DNA from: Candidatus Zambryskiibacteriota bacterium
GTDB lineage: Bacteria; Patescibacteriota; Minisyncoccia; Phycocordibacterales; DATDWN01
Direction: 5' to 3'
NCBI GenBank assembly: GCA_003173855.1
Contig: PPGI01000010.1
Span: 148,696-212,695 of the forward strand
Length of the DNA: 64,000 nucleotides
Position numbers and translations under genes: made by a program. Numbering within the stretch: the stretch's first letter is position 1; each line of letters begins with the position of its first letter. The notes under the pieces are model-generated. The model saw only the letters and a list, made by a program, of their open reading frames with translations, did not search any database and was not told the origin of the DNA. This document shows, one piece after another, positions 14,462 to 35,043 of this stretch.

Positions 14462-14800
14462 ATGATTACATTTTGGTTACTAGTACTGGCAACCGGAGCG
14501 CTTGGGACTGTAGCTGATATCGCTCTGAATAAGTGGACAAAGGTGAGCACTACAGCCTGGTGGTCATGGAGTGCGCTGCTTTTCATTGTATTCATGACTT
14601 GTTTTGGCTTGATAATTAAATTGGCTAAAACAAGGGGTTATGGCCTCACTGTCCCTGTTTTGTTTGTTCTGGCGTTTGACATTCTTGGGGTAGCAATCTG
14701 GGATGTTCATGTTGAGAACAGTACATTTACCCCACTACAGTGGACTTCACTTGTTCTCGTAACAATAGCGATTATTGGTTTCGAGATAAAAAGCTTCTAG
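14462..14800 (+). CDS. small 4-TM membrane protein (SMR/DMT-like)
   Basis: 112 aa, four predicted hydrophobic helices. Confidence 0.5.
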   Translation: MITFWLLVLATGALGTVADIALNKWTKVSTTAWWSWSALLFIVFMTCFGLIIKLAKTRGYGLTVPVLFVLAFDILGVAIWDVHVENSTFTPLQWTSLVLVTIAIIGFEIKSF

Positions 14801-15366
14801 ACCTTGGCCAGCGCTTTCTTGGTGCTGGCCTTTCGCTTTTGTGCATTAATATTCAACAGATAATTTGGGATCAAACCTTCTTTTTTGTATTTTTCTACAA
14901 TAATTTTTGGCAGATCTTTAAAACCATGTATACTTCCACGACAAACTTTGTTTCCACACCTGCAAATTATATTTTTTGCTGTGACATCATATTCAAGTGA
15001 GGCATAATCAAAAGTTAGTTCCTCACCTTTAGTTATTTTCTGCCTGGCAACAACTCTGATGTAAGGCCTTTTATGATTTTCGACGATTTTAATAACAGTA
15101 TTTGGGTCGCACGAGTGATTCAAATAATGTCCGAAGTCGGATTGACCATCGTTCCGAACTGGTTCAATATTTCGATCTAAATCAATAGCAAAAGAATATT
15201 TTGTTCGTTTTTTCTGTATTGGACCAGTTACAAGAAACAATAACTCTCCCTTTTTAAAATCTTTTTTGGTTACAACTCCAAGTTGATTTTTAAGAAAATT
15301 ACTGTTTCTAACCACAAGAGTATTAGTTTCTGGCAAAATCGTGCCAGATATCTGTTTTTGATTCAT
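14797..15366 (-). CDS. SET-domain protein lysine methyltransferase
   Basis: hallmark SET motifs NHSCDPN and GEELTFDY, followed by post-SET CRCGNKVCRG; lysine-rich tail. Confidence 0.8.
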   Translation of the reverse strand: MNQKQISGTILPETNTLVVRNSNFLKNQLGVVTKKDFKKGELLFLVTGPIQKKRTKYSFAIDLDRNIEPVRNDGQSDFGHYLNHSCDPNTVIKIVENHKRPYIRVVARQKITKGEELTFDYASLEYDVTAKNIICRCGNKVCRGSIHGFKDLPKIIVEKYKKEGLIPNYLLNINAQKRKASTKKALAKV

Positions 15367-15367
15367 A

Positions 15368-15751
15368 TTAAACTCTCGTTACAACTGAATGTGTCTCGGA
15401 TTTTGCTTTCCAAAACCCCATGCAATATTTTAATGCTACATCAGGATCAAATTCTTTACATGAAAAAAGATTTAAATAGACTGCATTGAGCATAGGAAGT
15501 GGGTGACAAACTACGTTGCTTGTTTCGATAAATTGAAATCCAGAGATTCCTCTCAAATGCGGAATATCAGAAGTGTCCTCCCAAAAAAATGGGTCTCCAT
15601 GTCTTTTCATATCAACTAAATCACATAATTCAACGAAAAATTTTTGAAGTTTTTCTCTGCTTAAATCAGAAAGATCACAACCTTTTAAATCCATAATCAG
15701 CTCAAGTCCATAATTTCCTTTATATCCAAATTTTTGTTCTGAATTTTTCAT
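15368..15751 (-). CDS. pyruvoyl-dependent S-adenosylmethionine decarboxylase-like protein (SpeH / class 1 AdoMetDC family)
   Basis: aligns to SpeH: GLELIMDLKGCD (LLVELWGCD), GISGFQFIETSNVVCHPLP ([20 protein letters not shown]), NLFSCK (DVYTCG); translationally coupled to SET gene. Confidence 0.65.
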   Translation of the reverse strand: MKNSEQKFGYKGNYGLELIMDLKGCDLSDLSREKLQKFFVELCDLVDMKRHGDPFFWEDTSDIPHLRGISGFQFIETSNVVCHPLPMLNAVYLNLFSCKEFDPDVALKYCMGFWKAKSETHSVVTRV

Positions 15752-15819
15752 GCTTGATACTGAATAAGTTAATTATTATAATGAATTATTATACATGATA
15801 ATTTAAAGTTGTCTAAGTT

Positions 15820-16638
15820 ATGAATAAAAAAGTGCATAATCTGTATATCACTCTACTTTGGGTACTTTATGTACTATTTATCGGCTGGTTTTTATGGATC
15901 TATCTAAGCAAAACCTCTGATAATCCAAATAATATTTACACTAATTTTTATGGCGTGATACCCCTTCTTGGAGGATTTTATGGTTTATGGTTATCAAAAT
16001 ATTGGGGAGGATGGAATAGTAAAGTTGGAAAGGCAGTGATACTTCTATCGAGCGGTTTGGTTACATGGGGAATAGGAATGGTCATTTGGCTTTACTATAA
16101 TATTATTCTACATGTTGATATTCCATATCCATCTTTGGCTGACGCTGCATTTATTCTAAGTTGGCCATTATGGGGAGCAGGGGCTGCTTTTCTTTCCATT
16201 GCTACAGGAGCAAAACTAGGTATGAGAGAAGTTAAGGGACGAGTAATGCTTTTCATTATTCCCATAATTGTTATTACCTTCTCATATTTTTTCCTAGTAA
16301 CCATTGCTAGGGGTGGGGTAGTCAGTGATTATCTTGGATTTTCAAAAACTTTTTTCGATGTGGCATATCCCGTTGGAGATGTTGTCATTTTAAGTATTAC
16401 ACTTTTAGTTTTCGGACTTTCATATAAATATTTTGGTGGAATATATAAAAAAGCTATTTACTTTATTTTGTTTGCATTTGTTATGAATTATTTTGCTGAT
16501 TTCACATTCTCATACACCACAACTTTAGGAACTTATTACAACGGAAGTCTTGCTGATGCCTTGTTTGTAACGACAATGACTATTTTAAGTACAGGTATTA
16601 TATTGCTAGATCCTAAAAAACTTGATCATCATAATTAA
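15820..16638 (+). CDS. hypothetical polytopic membrane protein
   Basis: about 7-8 predicted TM helices; no motif recognised. Confidence 0.5.
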   Translation: MNKKVHNLYITLLWVLYVLFIGWFLWIYLSKTSDNPNNIYTNFYGVIPLLGGFYGLWLSKYWGGWNSKVGKAVILLSSGLVTWGIGMVIWLYYNIILHVDIPYPSLADAAFILSWPLWGAGAAFLSIATGAKLGMREVKGRVMLFIIPIIVITFSYFFLVTIARGGVVSDYLGFSKTFFDVAYPVGDVVILSITLLVFGLSYKYFGGIYKKAIYFILFAFVMNYFADFTFSYTTTLGTYYNGSLADALFVTTMTILSTGIILLDPKKLDHHN

Positions 16639-16639
16639 A

Positions 16640-16924
16640 ATGCCTAAATTTGATCAAATCGCAATAAAAATAATTAAGGAACAAGAATTAGTTGTCGGAC
16701 CTTTAGCATGGTCGGAAGCAAAAAAAGTCCAAGGTCTCCAGGTAATTGATGATAAAAATGGGCAGGTTAGCTTCAATGATTCAGATCAAAAAGGAGTAAT
16801 TAACCGGCTAGTTGACCAGTATTCAAAGCTTTTTGGTAAGGCTTCTCGTGAAGTTTGCCGGGAAGCAGCGGCATCATTAATAGCTAATCTTTCGCCACAA
16901 GAAGTACCATCAAGTCTTGAATAA
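16640..16924 (+). CDS. hypothetical protein
   Basis: 94 aa from ATG 16640 (track ORF begins 16622); no motif. Confidence 0.4.
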   Translation: MPKFDQIAIKIIKEQELVVGPLAWSEAKKVQGLQVIDDKNGQVSFNDSDQKGVINRLVDQYSKLFGKASREVCREAAASLIANLSPQEVPSSLE

Positions 16925-16930
16925 TTTCAT

Positions 16931-17755
16931 ATGACTGACCAGGATAACAATCAAATTTCTCCGGAAGAATATAAAAAGATTACTGAATCAATGTATAATC
17001 AGAATCTGGAACTAGCCAGACTCTATAAACAAGTCGATAGTCTTAATCACGATCTTAGTCTTGCCAATCAGAGTCAGGCGAATTTGATGCACTTTATGAA
17101 TCATCAGATCAAAGGTCATTTTGGGAACGCTCGAAATATTTTTGCTGAGCTTCTGACAAATGATTACGGGGAAATACCGGAATTTGCCAAACCTTTTCTC
17201 GAAAAGGGTCTTGAGGAAACCAGAATGGGAGTTGATTATGTGCAGAGTATTTTAAAAGGTGCAAGTGCTGAAAACGGTACGCTCCCTTACGATATGAAGC
17301 AAATGGATTTAAAAAGGGTTGTTGAGGAGGTAGCAAATAAACAAAAGGAATTTGCGGAAAAAAAGGGTCTTAAGTTCAGTCTCGAAATTGGGGACGGTAC
17401 TTACAATATTAATGGTGACGAAGTTCAGTTAGGTGAAGCCATTAAAAATCTATTAGACAATTCTATAAACTACACAATAAATGGTGAAGTAAAAGTTTCG
17501 CTTATAAATTCTAATAATTCAGTACAAATTAAGGTAGAAGATACGGGAATTGGAATTGATCCGGAGGACAAAGACAAACTATTTAAATCTGGCGGACGAG
17601 GAAAAGATTCTCAAAAAATAAATGTAAATTCTACTGGATACGGACTTGTGTTTGTTAAGGGTGTTGTTGAAGCGCACAAGGGACGAGTTTGGGTCGAATC
17701 GGAGGGGGTTAATAAGGGATCGACTTTTTTTGTAGAACTCCCAAAAACTTCTTAA
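16931..17755 (+). CDS. cytoplasmic sensor histidine kinase (HisKA-like + HATPase_c)
   Basis: coiled-coil N-terminus, H-box region (MNHQIKGHFG), N/G boxes (LLDNSINYT, DTGIGIDPED, GYGLVFVKGVVEAHKGRVWVESE). Confidence 0.65.
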   Translation: MTDQDNNQISPEEYKKITESMYNQNLELARLYKQVDSLNHDLSLANQSQANLMHFMNHQIKGHFGNARNIFAELLTNDYGEIPEFAKPFLEKGLEETRMGVDYVQSILKGASAENGTLPYDMKQMDLKRVVEEVANKQKEFAEKKGLKFSLEIGDGTYNINGDEVQLGEAIKNLLDNSINYTINGEVKVSLINSNNSVQIKVEDTGIGIDPEDKDKLFKSGGRGKDSQKINVNSTGYGLVFVKGVVEAHKGRVWVESEGVNKGSTFFVELPKTS

Positions 17756-17773: not shown

Positions 17774-18475
17774 ATGTCGCAAGAGCATGTTTGGGAAAGG
17801 GAATACAGAAAGCCAAAATTGTTGACCAAACAAAACAAACCGCAGAACGATACGGTCAGATTTGTCGAGTTTTTAAAGAAAAAAGCCAAAGTTAAGGCAG
17901 AAGGTTTGCGAGTGCTGGATCTTGGTTCTGGGGCAGGGCGAAACAGCTTTTATTTTGCAAAACTTGGAAATCAGGTCAGCGGGCTTGAAATTTCGAAAAC
18001 TGCAATTGATGTGGCTAGAAGTTTTGCTAGAGATGCCAATTTACGTATTGATTACAAACGACAGACTATCGGAGACATTTTCCCATATGAAAATAATACT
18101 TTCGATATTGTACTTGATGTAGTTTCATCAAACTCGCTAACTGAAATTGAACGAGAGATTTATTTATCTGAAGTAAACCGCGTTCTAAAACCAGGAGGAT
18201 ATTTTTTCGTAAAAGCTTTGTCAAAAACAGGGGATTTGAATACCAAATATTTGCTCAAGCAATTTCCCGGCAAGGAAAAAGATACTTACAAAATGCCAGA
18301 TTTAGGAGTAGTGGAACGCGTCTGGTCCGAGAAAGATTTTATTGAATATTACTCTAAATTTTTTAAAATTTTAAAAATTGGGCGTAAAACAAACTATCCG
18401 CGTATGAATGATAGGTCCTACAAGCGCAACTACTGGATATCCTATATGAAAAAGGAAAGTATTGACATTAAATAA
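17774..18475 (+). CDS. class I SAM-dependent methyltransferase
   Basis: motif I VLDLGSGAGRNS, acidic end of beta2 (GLEIS), motif post I. Confidence 0.75.
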   Translation: MSQEHVWEREYRKPKLLTKQNKPQNDTVRFVEFLKKKAKVKAEGLRVLDLGSGAGRNSFYFAKLGNQVSGLEISKTAIDVARSFARDANLRIDYKRQTIGDIFPYENNTFDIVLDVVSSNSLTEIEREIYLSEVNRVLKPGGYFFVKALSKTGDLNTKYLLKQFPGKEKDTYKMPDLGVVERVWSEKDFIEYYSKFFKILKIGRKTNYPRMNDRSYKRNYWISYMKKESIDIK

Positions 18476-31122: not shown

Positions 31123-32428
31123 CGAAATAGTTGTAAGAATACCTCCTTCACCGACTGGCTATTTTCACGTAGGAAGAGCAAGGACAGCGTTGTTTAACTA
31201 TTTGTTTGCCAAGAAAAATGGAGGCAAAATTGTTTTTCGTATTGAAGACACTGATAAAGAACGTTCAAAAAGAGAATTTGAAGAAGACATTGTTGAAAGT
31301 TTAAAATGGCTCGGAATAACTTACGATGAAGGCCCGTTTCGGCAGTCAGAAAGAAATGATATCTATCGAGAGTCCATTCAAAAAATGATAAAGAATGGTT
31401 CAGCTTACATTTCCGAAGAATCTGAAGGATCGAATAAGGAGGTGGTTCGCTTTAAAAATCCTGGAGGAAAAATAAAATTTGAAGATATTATTCGTGGTGA
31501 AGTTGAAATGGAAATTGATGATTTAAAAGATTTTATTATTGCAAAAAATATAGACGAGCCTCTGTATCATTTAACTGTTGTTGTCGATGATTTTTTAATG
31601 GGAGTTACACATATTATTCGAGGAGATGATGGTATTTCAAATACTCCTAGACAAATTTTACTTCAGGAGGCTATTGGTGCCCCTAGGCCAAAGTATGCAC
31701 ACGTACCCCTAATCCTCGCGCCAGATAAAAGTAAGATGTCAGCAAGACATGGTGCAGTTTCACTTCGAGATTTTAGGGAGGCAGGTTATCTTCCAGAAGC
31801 AATAGTCAATTTTCTAGGGCTATTAGGCTTTAATCCTGGTGGAGAAAGGGAAATTTATAAAATGTCTGAACTGATTGAGGTTTTTGATTTAAGCCGTGTA
31901 CAAAAGGGTGGTGCTGTCTTTAATACGGAAAAATTGGATTGGATAAATAAAGAGCACATAAAGCTTCTGTCTGAAAAGGAAAGGAATGAAACCATCAAAA
32001 AATATTTAGAAAAAAACGGATTCAAAAATCCAAACCCTAAAATATTTCCAATTATTTTTGAACATATTTCAAAATGGGGTGATATAGACAAAATGACTAG
32101 GGAAGGGGAGTTGGATTTTTATTTTAAAACACCTGAATACGAAACTCACCTACTCTTCTGGAAAGGGAAGGAAGATAAAGAAACAACTAAAAAACATTTA
32201 AATTGGATTCTAGAAAAAATTTCAACTGTTGACTTTGAATCAGTAGAATCTGCAAAAAATTTGATATTTGATTATGCAACAGAACAAGGACGCGGTGAAG
32301 TTCTTTGGCCTCTTCGCGTTGCCCTTTCTGGTAAGGAAAAGTCTCCTGATCCGTTTACTTTACTATATGTTTTGGGGTCTGTGGAGAGCAAAAAAAGGAT
32401 AGAAAATGCTATAAATAAACTGTCGTGA
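31112..32428 (+). CDS. gltX: glutamyl-tRNA synthetase
   Basis: class I HIGH-type PSPTGYFHVGRAR, KMSARHG; start at ATG 31112 (track begins at upstream alt start 31079 overlapping murG). Confidence 0.9.
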   Translation: MKNNEIVVRIPPSPTGYFHVGRARTALFNYLFAKKNGGKIVFRIEDTDKERSKREFEEDIVESLKWLGITYDEGPFRQSERNDIYRESIQKMIKNGSAYISEESEGSNKEVVRFKNPGGKIKFEDIIRGEVEMEIDDLKDFIIAKNIDEPLYHLTVVVDDFLMGVTHIIRGDDGISNTPRQILLQEAIGAPRPKYAHVPLILAPDKSKMSARHGAVSLRDFREAGYLPEAIVNFLGLLGFNPGGEREIYKMSELIEVFDLSRVQKGGAVFNTEKLDWINKEHIKLLSEKERNETIKKYLEKNGFKNPNPKIFPIIFEHISKWGDIDKMTREGELDFYFKTPEYETHLLFWKGKEDKETTKKHLNWILEKISTVDFESVESAKNLIFDYATEQGRGEVLWPLRVALSGKEKSPDPFTLLYVLGSVESKKRIENAINKLS

Positions 32429-33684
32429 AATGGAAGTTAGTTTGGTTAATTATAATTTTTTCACTTGGAATTAAGGTGTATGCAGATACACAGGAAGATT
32501 TGCAATCAAAAATTGATGAGCGAAATCAGCAAATAAAACAACTTGAACAAGAAATTAGCCAATATAATTCTGAGGTAACCAATGCTTCAAATCAGGCAAG
32601 AACTCTTCAAAATACTCTAAAAACCCTCAATTTAACTCAAAGAAAAATAGGCGCAGATATTAGCTTAACTCAAAATAAGATCACGAAAGCCAATCTTACC
32701 ATCGATCAGCTTAGCGGCCAGATCGAAGACACAAAAGCTCATATCGATCTTAATAAGAAAGCAATTGCTAGTGCTATCAAGTATGATCAATCCATCGAGG
32801 ATATTGGTATTGTTGGAATAATTTTATCAAAATCAAATATTGGTGATATTTGGAATGACCTTGATTCAACACATGAGATACAATCGACAATTCGTAATAA
32901 ATCTAAAGAACTTTCTCTCCTTCAATCCAATATAGAAAACCAGCAAAGTGCTGTTACTGATCAAAAAAATAATCTAGTTCGACTGCAAAAAGATCTAGGT
33001 GGTAAACGCGAAGCTATTCAGGAAACTGTTAAGGAGCAAAACAGCTTGCTAGTTCAAACAAAAAATAAGGAACAAACATTCAAAGATTTAGTCCAACAAA
33101 AGGAGATTCAAAAAGCTCAGTTTGAAAAAGACGTCTTTAATTTCGAATCGCAGCTTCACTTACAAATTGATAAAACAAGCTATCCCGCTCCACAACACGG
33201 AATTCTCTCATGGCCATTGGATAATGTTTTTATAACTCAAGGATTTGGTAAAACCGTTGGTGCAGAAAAATTATATGTTTCCGGCTCGCATAATGGTGTT
33301 GATTTTAGAGCTTCAATCGGAACAGCTGTAAAAAATGTCCTGGCTGGCACAATTGTTGGCACTGGAAACACTGATGCTTACCCAGGCTGCTATTCATTCG
33401 GTAAATGGGTTATGGTCAAGCATGACAACGGCCTTTCAACTATTTATGGACATCTTTCAGCAATAAGTGTATCTAATGGAGACCATATTCAAACCGGTGA
33501 TTTAATTGGATACACTGGCAATACTGGCTATACAACTGGCCCGCATCTCCACATTAGTGTTTATGCTACTCAAGGTGTTCGAATCGAAAAATTTGTAAAT
33601 AGTAGGGGCTGTAAAGAAGCAATTTTGCCTTTAGCAGATACTGCTGCCTACCTTGACCCTCTAGCCTATTTTCCAAGCTTATAA
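32425..33684 (+). CDS. M23 family metalloendopeptidase with N-terminal coiled coil (EnvC-like)
   Basis: signal/TM, long Q/L-rich coiled coil, M23 motifs HNGVDF and GPHLHISV. Confidence 0.85.
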   Translation: MKWKLVWLIIIFSLGIKVYADTQEDLQSKIDERNQQIKQLEQEISQYNSEVTNASNQARTLQNTLKTLNLTQRKIGADISLTQNKITKANLTIDQLSGQIEDTKAHIDLNKKAIASAIKYDQSIEDIGIVGIILSKSNIGDIWNDLDSTHEIQSTIRNKSKELSLLQSNIENQQSAVTDQKNNLVRLQKDLGGKREAIQETVKEQNSLLVQTKNKEQTFKDLVQQKEIQKAQFEKDVFNFESQLHLQIDKTSYPAPQHGILSWPLDNVFITQGFGKTVGAEKLYVSGSHNGVDFRASIGTAVKNVLAGTIVGTGNTDAYPGCYSFGKWVMVKHDNGLSTIYGHLSAISVSNGDHIQTGDLIGYTGNTGYTTGPHLHISVYATQGVRIEKFVNSRGCKEAILPLADTAAYLDPLAYFPSL

Positions 33685-33759
33685 AAGGGGATAATCCTCT
33701 TACAACATCAAATATTAATGGTATAATTTTTTTAGTTATTAGCACATTAATTATTTGTT

Positions 33760-34359
33760 ATGTTTAAAAAAAATAAGCAAGAAATTTATGTCGGTGTCGG
33801 AATTCTAATAGTTCTTGTGATTATTATTGCTTATTGGTTGCAAGACAACACAAGTTATACAGTTGTTCCTGTAAACCAATATTCGCAATCTGGGCAGCAA
33901 GGATCAAAAAATGTTGTTTCAAGTAAAAATGTTCTTCCAATTTATACAATAATCGTAGGCGGAAGCACAAATACTTTTGAATTGCACGCACATGATATTG
34001 CTGGACTACATACCGGCCCAACAGGAGTTGCCCAGCAAGGACTCCCTCTTTATGAAAGCAAGATTCCTGGTTCAAGTTTTGCAATGTCATCAAATCAAGA
34101 GACTTTAATTCTAGATTCTAAGAATCCATATACAGTCGATATTTATGGAAAATCGCCATCATTTATAAATATTACTGTTATGGTGTCAAAAGCAGGGGAT
34201 AGCAAACCAACTATTTATGTCTCCCCTAATAATTTCCAAACTGTTTATGGTTCAAAAACAACTATAAATCTGCCACTAGGGAATGGCGTTCCAGTTCTTC
34301 AAATTGATACTAACAGTGACGGTGTAGTTGATTCACAAGTTACAATGAAACTTCAATGA
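33760..34359 (+). CDS. hypothetical membrane-anchored secreted protein
   Basis: N-terminal TM; no motif recognised. Confidence 0.45.
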   Translation: MFKKNKQEIYVGVGILIVLVIIIAYWLQDNTSYTVVPVNQYSQSGQQGSKNVVSSKNVLPIYTIIVGGSTNTFELHAHDIAGLHTGPTGVAQQGLPLYESKIPGSSFAMSSNQETLILDSKNPYTVDIYGKSPSFINITVMVSKAGDSKPTIYVSPNNFQTVYGSKTTINLPLGNGVPVLQIDTNSDGVVDSQVTMKLQ

Positions 34360-34534
34360 TAATTAAAGTCATCAGTATAGTCATGGTACCAAAGATATAT
34401 TGTGCGACATACTCTAATTCTACTTCCCTCAGAAAATAAACAAGAAAAAAGGAGAAACCAAAAAATAAGACTTCTCTTCCCTAAAGATTTAGACCGATAA
34501 AAAGTAAATAATATAAGACAAGACAAAAACAAAA

Positions 34535-34562
34535 GCTCCCTATTTCGGGAGCCTTTGTTTTT
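34535..34562. terminator. Rho-independent terminator (bidirectional)
   Basis: gctccc-tatttc-gggagc stem with A-run upstream and T-run downstream. Confidence 0.6.
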
Positions 34563-34566
34563 AAGT

Positions 34567-35043
34567 TTATTTAGAGTTTATTGCTAACTGACTTGATTCA
34601 AGTTTCGCTGCATCTGTTTTACCCCAACAAGCTTTTGAAGACTTCCAAGGAGCTGTTCCTTTATCCTCGTAAAGCTCACGGGCATATGCAGTGTTACCAG
34701 AAATTGTGTAGATATCGTAGTTCTCCGAAGTCGCTCTATCCAAGTGATAATGTTCGTTGATTTGCATCACACCAACATCTTCTGGATTAACTAAACCTCT
34801 ATGAACATCACCATCAGAGTCTAATTGTCGGAAGTGTGATTCACATCGAGCAATTTCGATCATAACAGGAATGTCTTTGAAGTACTGTCTTACATATTGT
34901 TCTGTAGACATGAGATTCTCTACATCCTTGTTGTCAATCTGCCTAACAAGTGTACTTTCAGTAACACTGTTTTCTATCTTCGGAGTTGTTGTCGGCATTA
35001 GTGTACTGACCCCACCCGTAATAGAATTCAAAACCATAAACAA
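34567..35043 (-). CDS. secreted lysozyme-like / transglycosylase-like domain protein
   Basis: signal peptide; IARCESHFRQ ... GVMQINEHYH pattern reminiscent of transglycosylase-like (CES..Q-I) folds. Confidence 0.45.
   Translation of the reverse strand: MFMVLNSITGGVSTLMPTTTPKIENSVTESTLVRQIDNKDVENLMSTEQYVRQYFKDIPVMIEIARCESHFRQLDSDGDVHRGLVNPEDVGVMQINEHYHLDRATSENYDIYTISGNTAYARELYEDKGTAPWKSSKACWGKTDAAKLESSQLAINSK

Follow-up and report, generated by a model that had tools for sequence, protein, structure and literature searches.

A SET-domain methyltransferase gene coupled to a SpeDC-like decarboxylase gene in a Patescibacteria contig

The decarboxylase-SET gene pair and its displacement by other enzymes

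We analysed a stretch of 64,000 nucleotides (nt) from a Candidatus Zambryskiibacteriota bacterium (contig PPGI01000010.1, positions 148,696 to 212,695; hereafter the window), and the subject of this study is a pair of adjacent genes in it, one encoding a 127-amino-acid (aa) decarboxylase proenzyme with the fold of S-adenosylmethionine decarboxylase (AdoMetDC) and the other a SET-domain methyltransferase dependent on S-adenosylmethionine (SAM). The ORF list and the sequence revealed that the stop codon of the decarboxylase gene and the start codon of the SET gene are separated by a single nucleotide (TAA-T-ATG), in agreement with the junction of 1-2 nt given in the preliminary description of this locus, and the SET gene is translationally coupled to the decarboxylase gene. 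The closest homologues of both proteins carry the names of Patescibacteria, or Candidate Phyla Radiation (CPR) bacteria, namely Nomurabacteria, Zambryskibacteria, Staskawiczbacteria and Paceibacterota. The pair and the features that surround it are listed in Table 1.

Table 1. Features at the decarboxylase-SET locus (positions in the window; TM, transmembrane)
Feature	Position	Strand	Basis
Decarboxylase proenzyme, AdoMetDC fold, SpeDC-like clade, 127 aa	15368..15751	-	PF02675 and alignment
SET-domain methyltransferase, SAM-dependent, 189 aa	14797..15366	-	PF00856 and motifs
Divergent intergenic region, 68 bp, back-to-back sigma-70-like promoters, one per operon	15752..15819		consensus match
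Membrane protein with eight TM segments (8-TM), 272 aa, conserved, 7TM-receptor-like fold	15820..16638	+	no Pfam/NCBIfam match
Soluble protein of ~95-100 aa, conserved	16622..16924	+	phmmer matches in most related loci
Cytoplasmic histidine kinase, 274 aa, HisKA-like region and HATPase_c	16931..17755	+	NCBIfam best E = 9.5e-35
Small four-helix membrane protein, 112 aa, convergent with SET	14462..14800	+	homologues in same position elsewhere

At least 225 homologues of the decarboxylase were found, the closest being 65-80% identical. Four contigs were looked up and presented three distinct neighbourhoods with the SET gene immediately downstream and one without it; across independent contigs the gene order was the same and the junction varied from -1 to +4 nt. 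One genome per species was scanned, giving 80 loci whose ORFs were called and searched with the window proteins. The SET gene lay directly downstream of the decarboxylase gene in 7 of the 14 Patescibacteria-type loci (decarboxylase at least 59% identical; L012, L014, L016, L017, L020, L022 and L026) and in 0 of the 10 non-Patescibacteria loci of the same decarboxylase clade, while the search from the SET side found the decarboxylase gene immediately upstream in 11 of the 12 evaluable close homologues, on metagenome contigs. The twelfth falls in a sub-branch (L099, P0168) whose SET gene stands by itself. These two fractions illustrate that the SET gene depends on the decarboxylase gene far more than the reverse. 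The recurrence of the pair in other genomes, which the preliminary description had proposed as a check, reveals that their adjacency is not a matter of chance.

The decarboxylase next to this SET clade is not always of one fold. Two distant SET matches (36-40% identical; L106 and L107) are proteins of ~550 aa in which Orn_Arg_deC_N and Orn_DAP_Arg_deC domains, forming a pyridoxal 5'-phosphate (PLP) decarboxylase, are joined to a SET domain. Because the two proteins are 47% identical across both domains, the fusion is old and not an assembly artefact. Its PLP domain matched the lysine/ornithine decarboxylases of V. vulnificus (2PLJ; E = 1.7e-61) and Selenomonas (E = 7.3e-47), and the L106 fusion gene is divergent from homologues of the 8-TM, ~95-aa and kinase genes. 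A SET profile search of 1.84 billion representative proteins revealed further PLP-decarboxylase-SET fusions (P0327, P0360 and P0356), and the gene of the first of these (MDQ3099658.1; L174/175) again diverges from a trio of 8-TM, p90 and kinase genes (E = 1e-74 and 4e-21 to the window proteins). In addition, L176, reached from the 8-TM homologue P0290, possesses a separate PLP decarboxylase gene followed by a SET gene, in the same slot and the same order; the former protein matched the L106 domain (E = 5e-91) and the latter the window SET protein (E = 1e-44). Two unrelated decarboxylase folds are thus interchangeable in one module, with SET tied to either. This interchange in one slot argues that the partnership concerns basic-amino-acid decarboxylation and not SAM, and we have high confidence that the SET protein is functionally coupled to the decarboxylation step.

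The position of the SET gene can also be taken by another methyltransferase. In L027, a gene of the NNMT/PNMT/TEMT family (PF01234, E = 2.3e-42), annotated as small-molecule amine N-methyltransferases, stands 10 nt downstream of the decarboxylase gene, where the SET gene stands elsewhere. A member of the same family adjoins the decarboxylase gene in L013 and lies nearby in L039.

Families and conserved residues of the two enzymes

The 127-aa protein had been assigned to the SpeH family, and the assignment holds: it matched PF02675 (AdoMet_dc) with E = 2.7e-13 and 50.6 bits (Pfam cut-off 25). The AdoMetDC equivalog model TIGR03330, however, gave 23.4 bits, under its cut-off of 75.65. Ser78, His83 and Cys98 align with Ser63, His68 and Cys83 of T. 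maritima SpeH (1TLU), and T77, S78, H83, C98, Q73 and Y92 are invariant across 26 decarboxylase homologues; the invariant Ser/His/Cys triad leads us to expect an active pyruvoyl enzyme with predicted self-cleavage between Thr77 and Ser78. Trp57 and Trp114 are also invariant in the clade. The cleavage site is Thr-Ser and not Glu-Ser as in AdoMetDC, and the HTWPE motif of AdoMetDC reads HPLPM here, with Met for Glu. At His+3 the window protein keeps the Pro, a position that varies within its clade (HALT, HALN, HPIS).

The characterised proteins closest to the window decarboxylase are the SpeDC enzymes, pyruvoyl L-ornithine decarboxylases derived from AdoMetDC/SpeD through neofunctionalisation, which (Li, Liang, Phillips & Michael, JBC 2023; PMC10407285), lack AdoMetDC activity and decarboxylate L-ornithine as their sole substrate (PMC10407285). 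Homologues of SpeDC type are 36-39% identical to the window protein (E = 2e-17 to 5e-28), the best of them being a SpeE/SpeH-linked homologue (39% identity, E = 5e-28), whereas canonical SpeH gave only E = 3e-7. Four diagnostic residues near the processing site mark SpeDC, namely Gln, Thr, Phe and Tyr (PMC10407285, Fig. 8), and the window clade has three of them without variation (Gln73, Thr77 and Tyr92). Because of the equivalog score, the Thr before the catalytic Ser, the HPLPM motif and the closer SpeDC match, the 127-aa protein is not a typical AdoMetDC, and in all likelihood it is no AdoMetDC at all. The earlier statement that both enzymes act on SAM thus finds no support on the side of the decarboxylase, which is moreover displaced by PLP lysine/ornithine decarboxylases.

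An alignment of two proven ornithine decarboxylase domains (PMC10407285, Fig. S5), the SpeE/SpeH-linked loci L080-L089 and the window clade resolved three sister groups of SpeD-like decarboxylases. Group (a), 'Q.IETS..GHF', comprises the true SpeDC proteins, beside SpeH and SpeE; group (b), QFILTSSIVIHTLD, lies beside DUF3326 in 37 loci; and group (c), 'QFIETSNVVCH[PA]LP', is the clade of the window, with the Gln, Thr and Tyr and without the Phe. Group (c) is an uncharacterised and strongly conserved branch. Among the species-representative loci, SpeE stands beside none of the window's decarboxylase clade and adjoins only the distant 'GHF' SpeDC-type homologues of L080-L089; hss, speD/speE and casdh/casdc were likewise not found in the loci of the window clade. 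Judged from homology and gene displacement, the substrate of the window decarboxylase is most likely ornithine and possibly lysine. A phage origin was considered and set aside, the two phage matches being weak (26% identity) and uninformative.

The sister group (b) has a conserved context of its own. Its decarboxylases are 37-49% identical to the window protein (L041-L079 and L086; e.g. L059:6386-7753), and in 37 species-representative loci the gene is directly followed by that of a ~455-aa DUF3326 protein, often with a GSP_synth (glutathionylspermidine-synthase-like) gene and two small genes preceding the pair. The hosts include marine Rhodospirillales, Marinimicrobia, Planctomycetota and others, and these loci constitute a conserved, uncharacterised cluster of polyamine type. 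In one of them, a distant SET homologue (L056:5992-6579, minus strand, E = 2.5e-14) lies ~3.5 kb from the decarboxylase gene, separated from it by an HNH-endonuclease gene and a gene for a ~459-aa protein; an HNH protein and a ~420-aa protein recur beside the DUF3326-type decarboxylase in 8-9 loci and may represent a mobile or defence-like insertion. In Nanoarchaeota-type metagenome-assembled genomes, the decarboxylase carries an additional putative Zn/Fe-chelating domain (CxxCxxCC, PF03692) at its N-terminus, and the resulting fusion proteins are ~255 aa long (L035:5357-6130 and L037:5584-6345).

The 189-aa protein matched the SET family PF00856 (E = 3.7e-16, 59.9 bits; cut-off 22.4). The motifs that had been read from it are all present: NHSCDPN at residues 83-89, ELTFDY at 116-121 and, in the post-SET region, CRCGNKVC at 135-142. 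Core motif residues are invariant in 25 homologues, as is the post-SET zinc cluster of C86, C135, C137 and C142 (the Cys of NHSC and CxCx4C), and the clade has a specific C-terminal helical tail (HGFKDLP...Y..EG.IP.YLL). In SET enzymes, the residue at the Phe/Tyr-switch position bears on the number of methyl groups added, and the invariant Phe found there in ELxFDY suggests that the enzyme may transfer more than one. A tight clade comprises about 65 close homologues (48-64% identity), after which the scores drop sharply.

The sequence and fold matches of the SET protein in the PDB include the lysine methyltransferases MLL/KMT2, NSD and ASH1L. KMT2D was the best sequence match (E = 2.7e-11), and the AF2 model (pLDDT 86.5) was closest in fold to the SET domains of MLL3/MLL1 (TM-scores 0.57/0.68). 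BurB, a bacterial SET protein of ~170 aa that methylates the free amino acid Met (PMC12542666), gave E = 3.3e-6 and TM-scores of 0.56/0.65. With the BurB fold match nearly equal to that of MLL, the model alone leaves the SET substrate undecided. Since BurB contacts Met through main-chain atoms (PMC12542666), there is no residue signature of BurB to look for, and bur-like neighbour genes were not found at the window or at the related loci inspected.

The nearest relatives of the SET clade are fused to a non-ribosomal peptide synthetase (NRPS) module, a cyclodipeptide synthase (CDPS), ATP-grasp ligases, cyanophycin synthetase and LD-carboxypeptidase. Such fused or adjoining relatives (P0330, P0389, P0411/P0392/P0398, L122:2460-5435, L123:377-1630 and L105:630-2235) include a 1981-aa protein with a C-A-T-TE NRPS module and ATP-grasp (D-Ala-D-Ala-ligase-like) proteins with two SET copies, and the partner enzymes all handle amino acids or non-ribosomal peptides. 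Searched with the SET profile, the representative library gave as its top matches very long proteins with 5-8 tandem SET matches (P0318, 1479 aa; P0319, 1449 aa; P0320; P0334).

The divergent genes and the wider window

In most Patescibacteria loci the decarboxylase gene divergently adjoins genes for a ~270-aa membrane protein, a ~95-aa protein and a histidine kinase, and its linkage to these genes is at least as tight as its linkage to the SET gene. Between the two operons of the window, promoter-like sites matching the consensus at 11 of 12 positions were found on the minus strand (TAGACA-16-TATAAT, 15815 to 15788) and on the plus strand (TTGATA-17-TATAAT, 15754 to 15782). The 272-aa membrane protein matched no Pfam or NCBIfam family and may be a membrane sensor or a ligand-binding partner of the kinase. 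The ~95-aa protein, for which there was no Pfam match, is always encoded after the 8-TM gene; in some genomes the two are joined in one gene (L013 and the 364-391-aa homologues). The kinase has no TM segment; in related loci, too, a kinase is encoded beside the 8-TM and small proteins.

The decarboxylase-SET pair is usually followed by a gene for a small four-helix or a full-length EamA-like membrane protein. In the window, this is the 112-aa protein, whose gene overlaps the SET stop by 4 nt and which had no significant Pfam match. Homologues stand in the same position in L004/5, L018, L021 and L092-L095, and the counterparts elsewhere are weakly EamA/DMT-like (L001) or a full EamA protein of 305 aa (L007). 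An exporter function is possible and membership of the module tentative. Most likely, the divergent trio and the DMT-like protein sense, regulate or export the amine.

A minority of loci carry an LPG_synthase_C gene in place of the 8-TM gene. In L016, L019, L020 and L007/L008, LPG_synthase_C (an aminoacyl-tRNA-dependent transferase, PF09924) and full-length EamA flank the decarboxylase and stand instead of the 8-TM and ~95-aa genes. A link to lipid head groups or aminoacyl-phosphatidylglycerol was considered on this account; no chemistry connects it to a decarboxylase.

The window has a G+C content of ~36%, and the genes around the module are of housekeeping type (tRNA synthetases, ribosomal protein L9, a MacAB-like ABC efflux system, ClpP and ScpA). 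As the preliminary description had noted, no spermidine synthase is nearby: homologues of SpeE were not found within the 64 kb, nor were a second SpeH, a lysine/ornithine decarboxylase, glutathionylspermidine synthetase or NNMT. An Rfam scan of the window returned no RNA family. A strong hairpin with a T-tract (14806-14830, plus strand; 10-bp stem with 7 G-C pairs) lies directly 3' of the stop of the small membrane-protein gene and within the 3' end of the convergent SET gene, where that gene encodes a non-conserved C-terminal tail (KASTKKALAKV). A class I SAM methyltransferase gene (Methyltransf_11/25/31, TehB/TPMT-like; 17774-18475, plus strand) begins 19 nt past the kinase stop. A homologue is close to the module in L007/L008 (E = 6e-14) and a different class I methyltransferase in L004-L006; with so inconsistent a presence, this gene may or may not belong to the module. 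On a larger scale, cumulative GC skew peaks at ~32-34 kb, and nearly all genes are on the plus strand at 7-34 kb and on the minus strand at 34.5-60 kb, which is consistent with a replication terminus or other strand-switch point at ~32000-34600.

Proposed pathway, alternatives and comparison with known systems

We give about an even chance to a pathway in which a basic amino acid is converted into a diamine and then into an N-methyl diamine, within a module that also comprises the 7TM-like protein, the small protein, the kinase and the putative exporter. In the first step, to which homology and gene displacement point, the self-cleaved proenzyme would acquire its pyruvoyl cofactor and decarboxylate L-ornithine (most likely) or L-lysine, yielding putrescine or cadaverine. 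In the second step, suggested by gene fusions, displacement and context, the SET protein would use SAM to N-methylate the terminal amine of the diamine, which resembles a lysine side chain; by analogy, a diamine or the free side chain of ornithine or lysine could mimic the lysine side chain that SET enzymes accept. The substrate of the SET protein is thus probably a small amine and not a histone, a view favoured by the fusions to and adjacency with decarboxylases, the replacement by NNMT-family enzymes, the fusions of its relatives and the precedent of BurB. Since about half of the loci lack the SET gene and yet have an unaltered decarboxylase, methylation would be an optional tailoring step. 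No residue distinguishes decarboxylases with SET from those without it (65.6% identity between the groups, 65.4% within the former), so the decarboxylase substrate is probably independent of SET; this favours decarboxylation first and methylation after.

Several points weigh against this pathway. First, its substrate, its product and the order of its steps are all inferred. Second, the fourth SpeDC diagnostic residue differs, the window clade having H-[P/A]-L-P where SpeDC has H-F, and given the missing Phe the decarboxylase may not use ornithine. Third, the characterised SpeDC enzymes do not use lysine (PMC10407285), whereas the displacing PLP enzymes are of a type that uses both lysine and ornithine. 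Fourth, one SET sub-branch (L099, P0168) stands without a decarboxylase, and deltaproteobacterial members of the decarboxylase clade occur without SET and without the membrane and kinase genes, with no conserved partners in common among their neighbourhoods. Fifth, the SET protein possesses the full set of hallmarks of protein lysine methyltransferases, and a protein substrate is compatible with its sequence. Finally, literature searches returned no report of N-methylated diamines in these bacteria.

The fifth point leads to the alternative that survives best, in which the SET protein is a genuine protein lysine methyltransferase merely co-regulated with a decarboxylase that makes an ordinary diamine, its target being a cellular, envelope or host protein, or else the decarboxylase, the ~95-aa protein or the kinase. 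The invariant NHSCxPN, ELxFDY and post-SET motifs, the best sequence and fold matches to MLL/KMT2, NSD and ASH1L, and the name 'protein-lysine N-methyltransferase' that NCBI gives to the decarboxylase-SET fusions all accord with it. We nevertheless consider it unlikely: it is difficult to see why a protein-modifying enzyme should be fused to, or invariably adjoin, basic-amino-acid decarboxylases of two unrelated kinds, a small-molecule methyltransferase of the NNMT family stands in SET's stead in L027 and L013, SET relatives carry fusions to NRPS, CDPS and ATP-grasp enzymes of small-molecule or peptide metabolism, and SET is dispensable while all of the module's candidate protein targets stay.

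The two steps might also run in reverse, with the SET protein N-methylating the side chain of free ornithine or lysine and the decarboxylase specialised for the methylated amino acid. Among small molecules, the free side chain comes nearest to what SET enzymes canonically accept, and the decarboxylase pocket differs from that of SpeDC in its H-[P/A]-L-P and in the invariant Trp57 and Trp114, which could fit a methylammonium group. However, conservation of the decarboxylase is the same whether or not SET is there, and none of its residues tracks the presence of SET; a methyltransferase is missing altogether from about half of the loci and from every deltaproteobacterial member; and the decarboxylase comes first in both the fused and the unfused gene order. 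The reversed scheme has a poor chance of being correct.

The remaining alternatives are far weaker. In the first, the 127-aa protein would be a SAM decarboxylase, and the SET protein would use decarboxylated SAM, for instance to donate aminopropyl groups to lysines, or else the pair would balance SAM flux between methylation and polyamine synthesis. These were two of the three options offered in the preliminary description, and neither found support: the membership in Pfam AdoMet_dc, the retained catalytic triad and the Pro at His+3, a conserved residue of bona fide AdoMetDCs, are outweighed by the score far under the equivalog cut-off, by the Thr-Ser and Met changes, by nearest relatives whose tested members have no AdoMetDC activity, by displacement with PLP lysine/ornithine decarboxylases incapable of making decarboxylated SAM, and by the full set of methyl-transfer motifs in the SET protein with no aminopropyltransferase in the window. 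We therefore discarded the aminopropyl idea and regard this whole line of explanation as very improbable. The third option, another decarboxylase that borrows the AdoMetDC fold, came closest. Equally remote is a sulfonium pathway, in which SET would convert Met into S-methylmethionine, as a BurB-like enzyme might, and the AdoMetDC-fold enzyme would then produce the amine of dimethylsulfoniopropionate (DMSP): BurB does match the window SET protein and S-methylmethionine does resemble SAM, but we downgraded this scheme since the SET protein is nearer to lysine methyltransferases, the displacing and fused decarboxylases are of the lysine/ornithine type, the window decarboxylase is closest to ornithine decarboxylases, and half of the loci that have it lack SET.

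Returning to the diamine pathway, the six genes could be extended to a self-contained amine signalling system, in which an N-methylated, possibly quaternary, diamine would be made by the decarboxylase and SET, exported by the DMT-like protein, and sensed by the 7TM-receptor-like protein with the ~95-aa protein as an adaptor and the kinase. This extension appears doubtful to us; if true, it would present a cell-cell or symbiont-host signal of the 'biogenic amine plus 7TM receptor' kind in CPR bacteria. In the same doubtful and more general view, the members of a large prokaryotic SET clade may methylate amines of small molecules or peptides and not lysines of proteins.

All of the components come from known families; literature searches (SET with CPR, ATP-grasp or gene neighbourhoods, DUF3326, and methylated diamines in bacteria) found no description of their coupling, of the small-molecule role predicted for the SET clade or of the sensor-like genes. 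Bacterial SET proteins have mostly been treated either as effectors methylating the histones of a host or as enzymes that modify nucleoid proteins. The present clade is obligately coupled, by operon, fusion and displacement, to presumed diamine-forming decarboxylases of two unrelated folds. If the pathway is true, free amines would join the known substrates of SET enzymes, a step beyond BurB, Patescibacteria, organisms of very little biosynthetic capacity, would make a new methylated metabolite of polyamine type, and an ancestral role of the SET domain before chromatin would be hinted at; in addition, an uncharacterised, conserved branch of neofunctionalised AdoMetDC would be flagged, with a testable substrate and a 7TM-like/kinase partner.

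Among known systems, SpeDC shares with the window decarboxylase the class 1b AdoMetDC fold, the length of ~120-130 aa, the Ser/His/Cys triad, the Thr-Ser site and the Gln/Thr/Tyr residues; it is the best-scoring characterised relative and also occurs in CPR bacteria without SpeE. The window decarboxylases differ in having Pro or Ala for the Phe after the catalytic His (CH[PA]LP), in forming a separate clade with 65-80% internal identity, and in sitting with SET, the 7TM-like protein and the kinase but never with hss, speE or casdh/casdc. The PLP lysine/ornithine decarboxylases (V. vulnificus 2PLJ; Selenomonas ruminantium 5GJM) have an unrelated fold, an alanine-racemase-type barrel with PLP in place of a pyruvoyl cofactor; they take the same slot with the same SET clade and the same divergent genes, and are presumably the functional analogue of the window decarboxylase.

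On the SET side, BurB (Burkholderia thailandensis; PMC12542666; PDB 9l4t/9l4v) is likewise a small stand-alone bacterial SET protein of similar size and fold. It differs in catalysing Met S-methylation in the bur/DMSP pathway and in being a distant sequence match, while the window protein has the post-SET Cys cluster and is nearer to lysine N-methyltransferases. The eukaryotic histone H3K4 methyltransferases of the SET1/MLL (KMT2) type share the NHSCxPN, ELxFDY and post-SET motifs and are the best sequence and fold match, but the window protein is a stand-alone enzyme without chromatin-reader domains or WRAD partners, encoded in a metabolic operon of an organism without histones.

For the signalling view, the likeness is one of gene arrangement. 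In Vibrio, the gene of the signal synthase CqsA lies beside that of the sensor kinase CqsS. Polyamines are known bacterial signals, and NspS/MbaA sense them (PMC5646818). Here too, the gene of an enzyme forming a small molecule lies beside those of a membrane sensor and a kinase; the proteins are not homologous to those systems, and a signalling role would follow from the gene arrangement alone.

The chemistry itself has closer parallels, although we know of no SET enzyme that methylates a diamine. In animals, aromatic amino-acid decarboxylase and PNMT or INMT provide a route to methylated biogenic amines. In plants, ornithine decarboxylase and putrescine N-methyltransferase provide another route to a methylated amine (PMC3725402). 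Both enzyme families in the module are others than those of the known routes, but the proposed course from amino acid to amine to N-methyl amine is the same, and in some of the loci an enzyme of the NNMT/PNMT family replaces SET.

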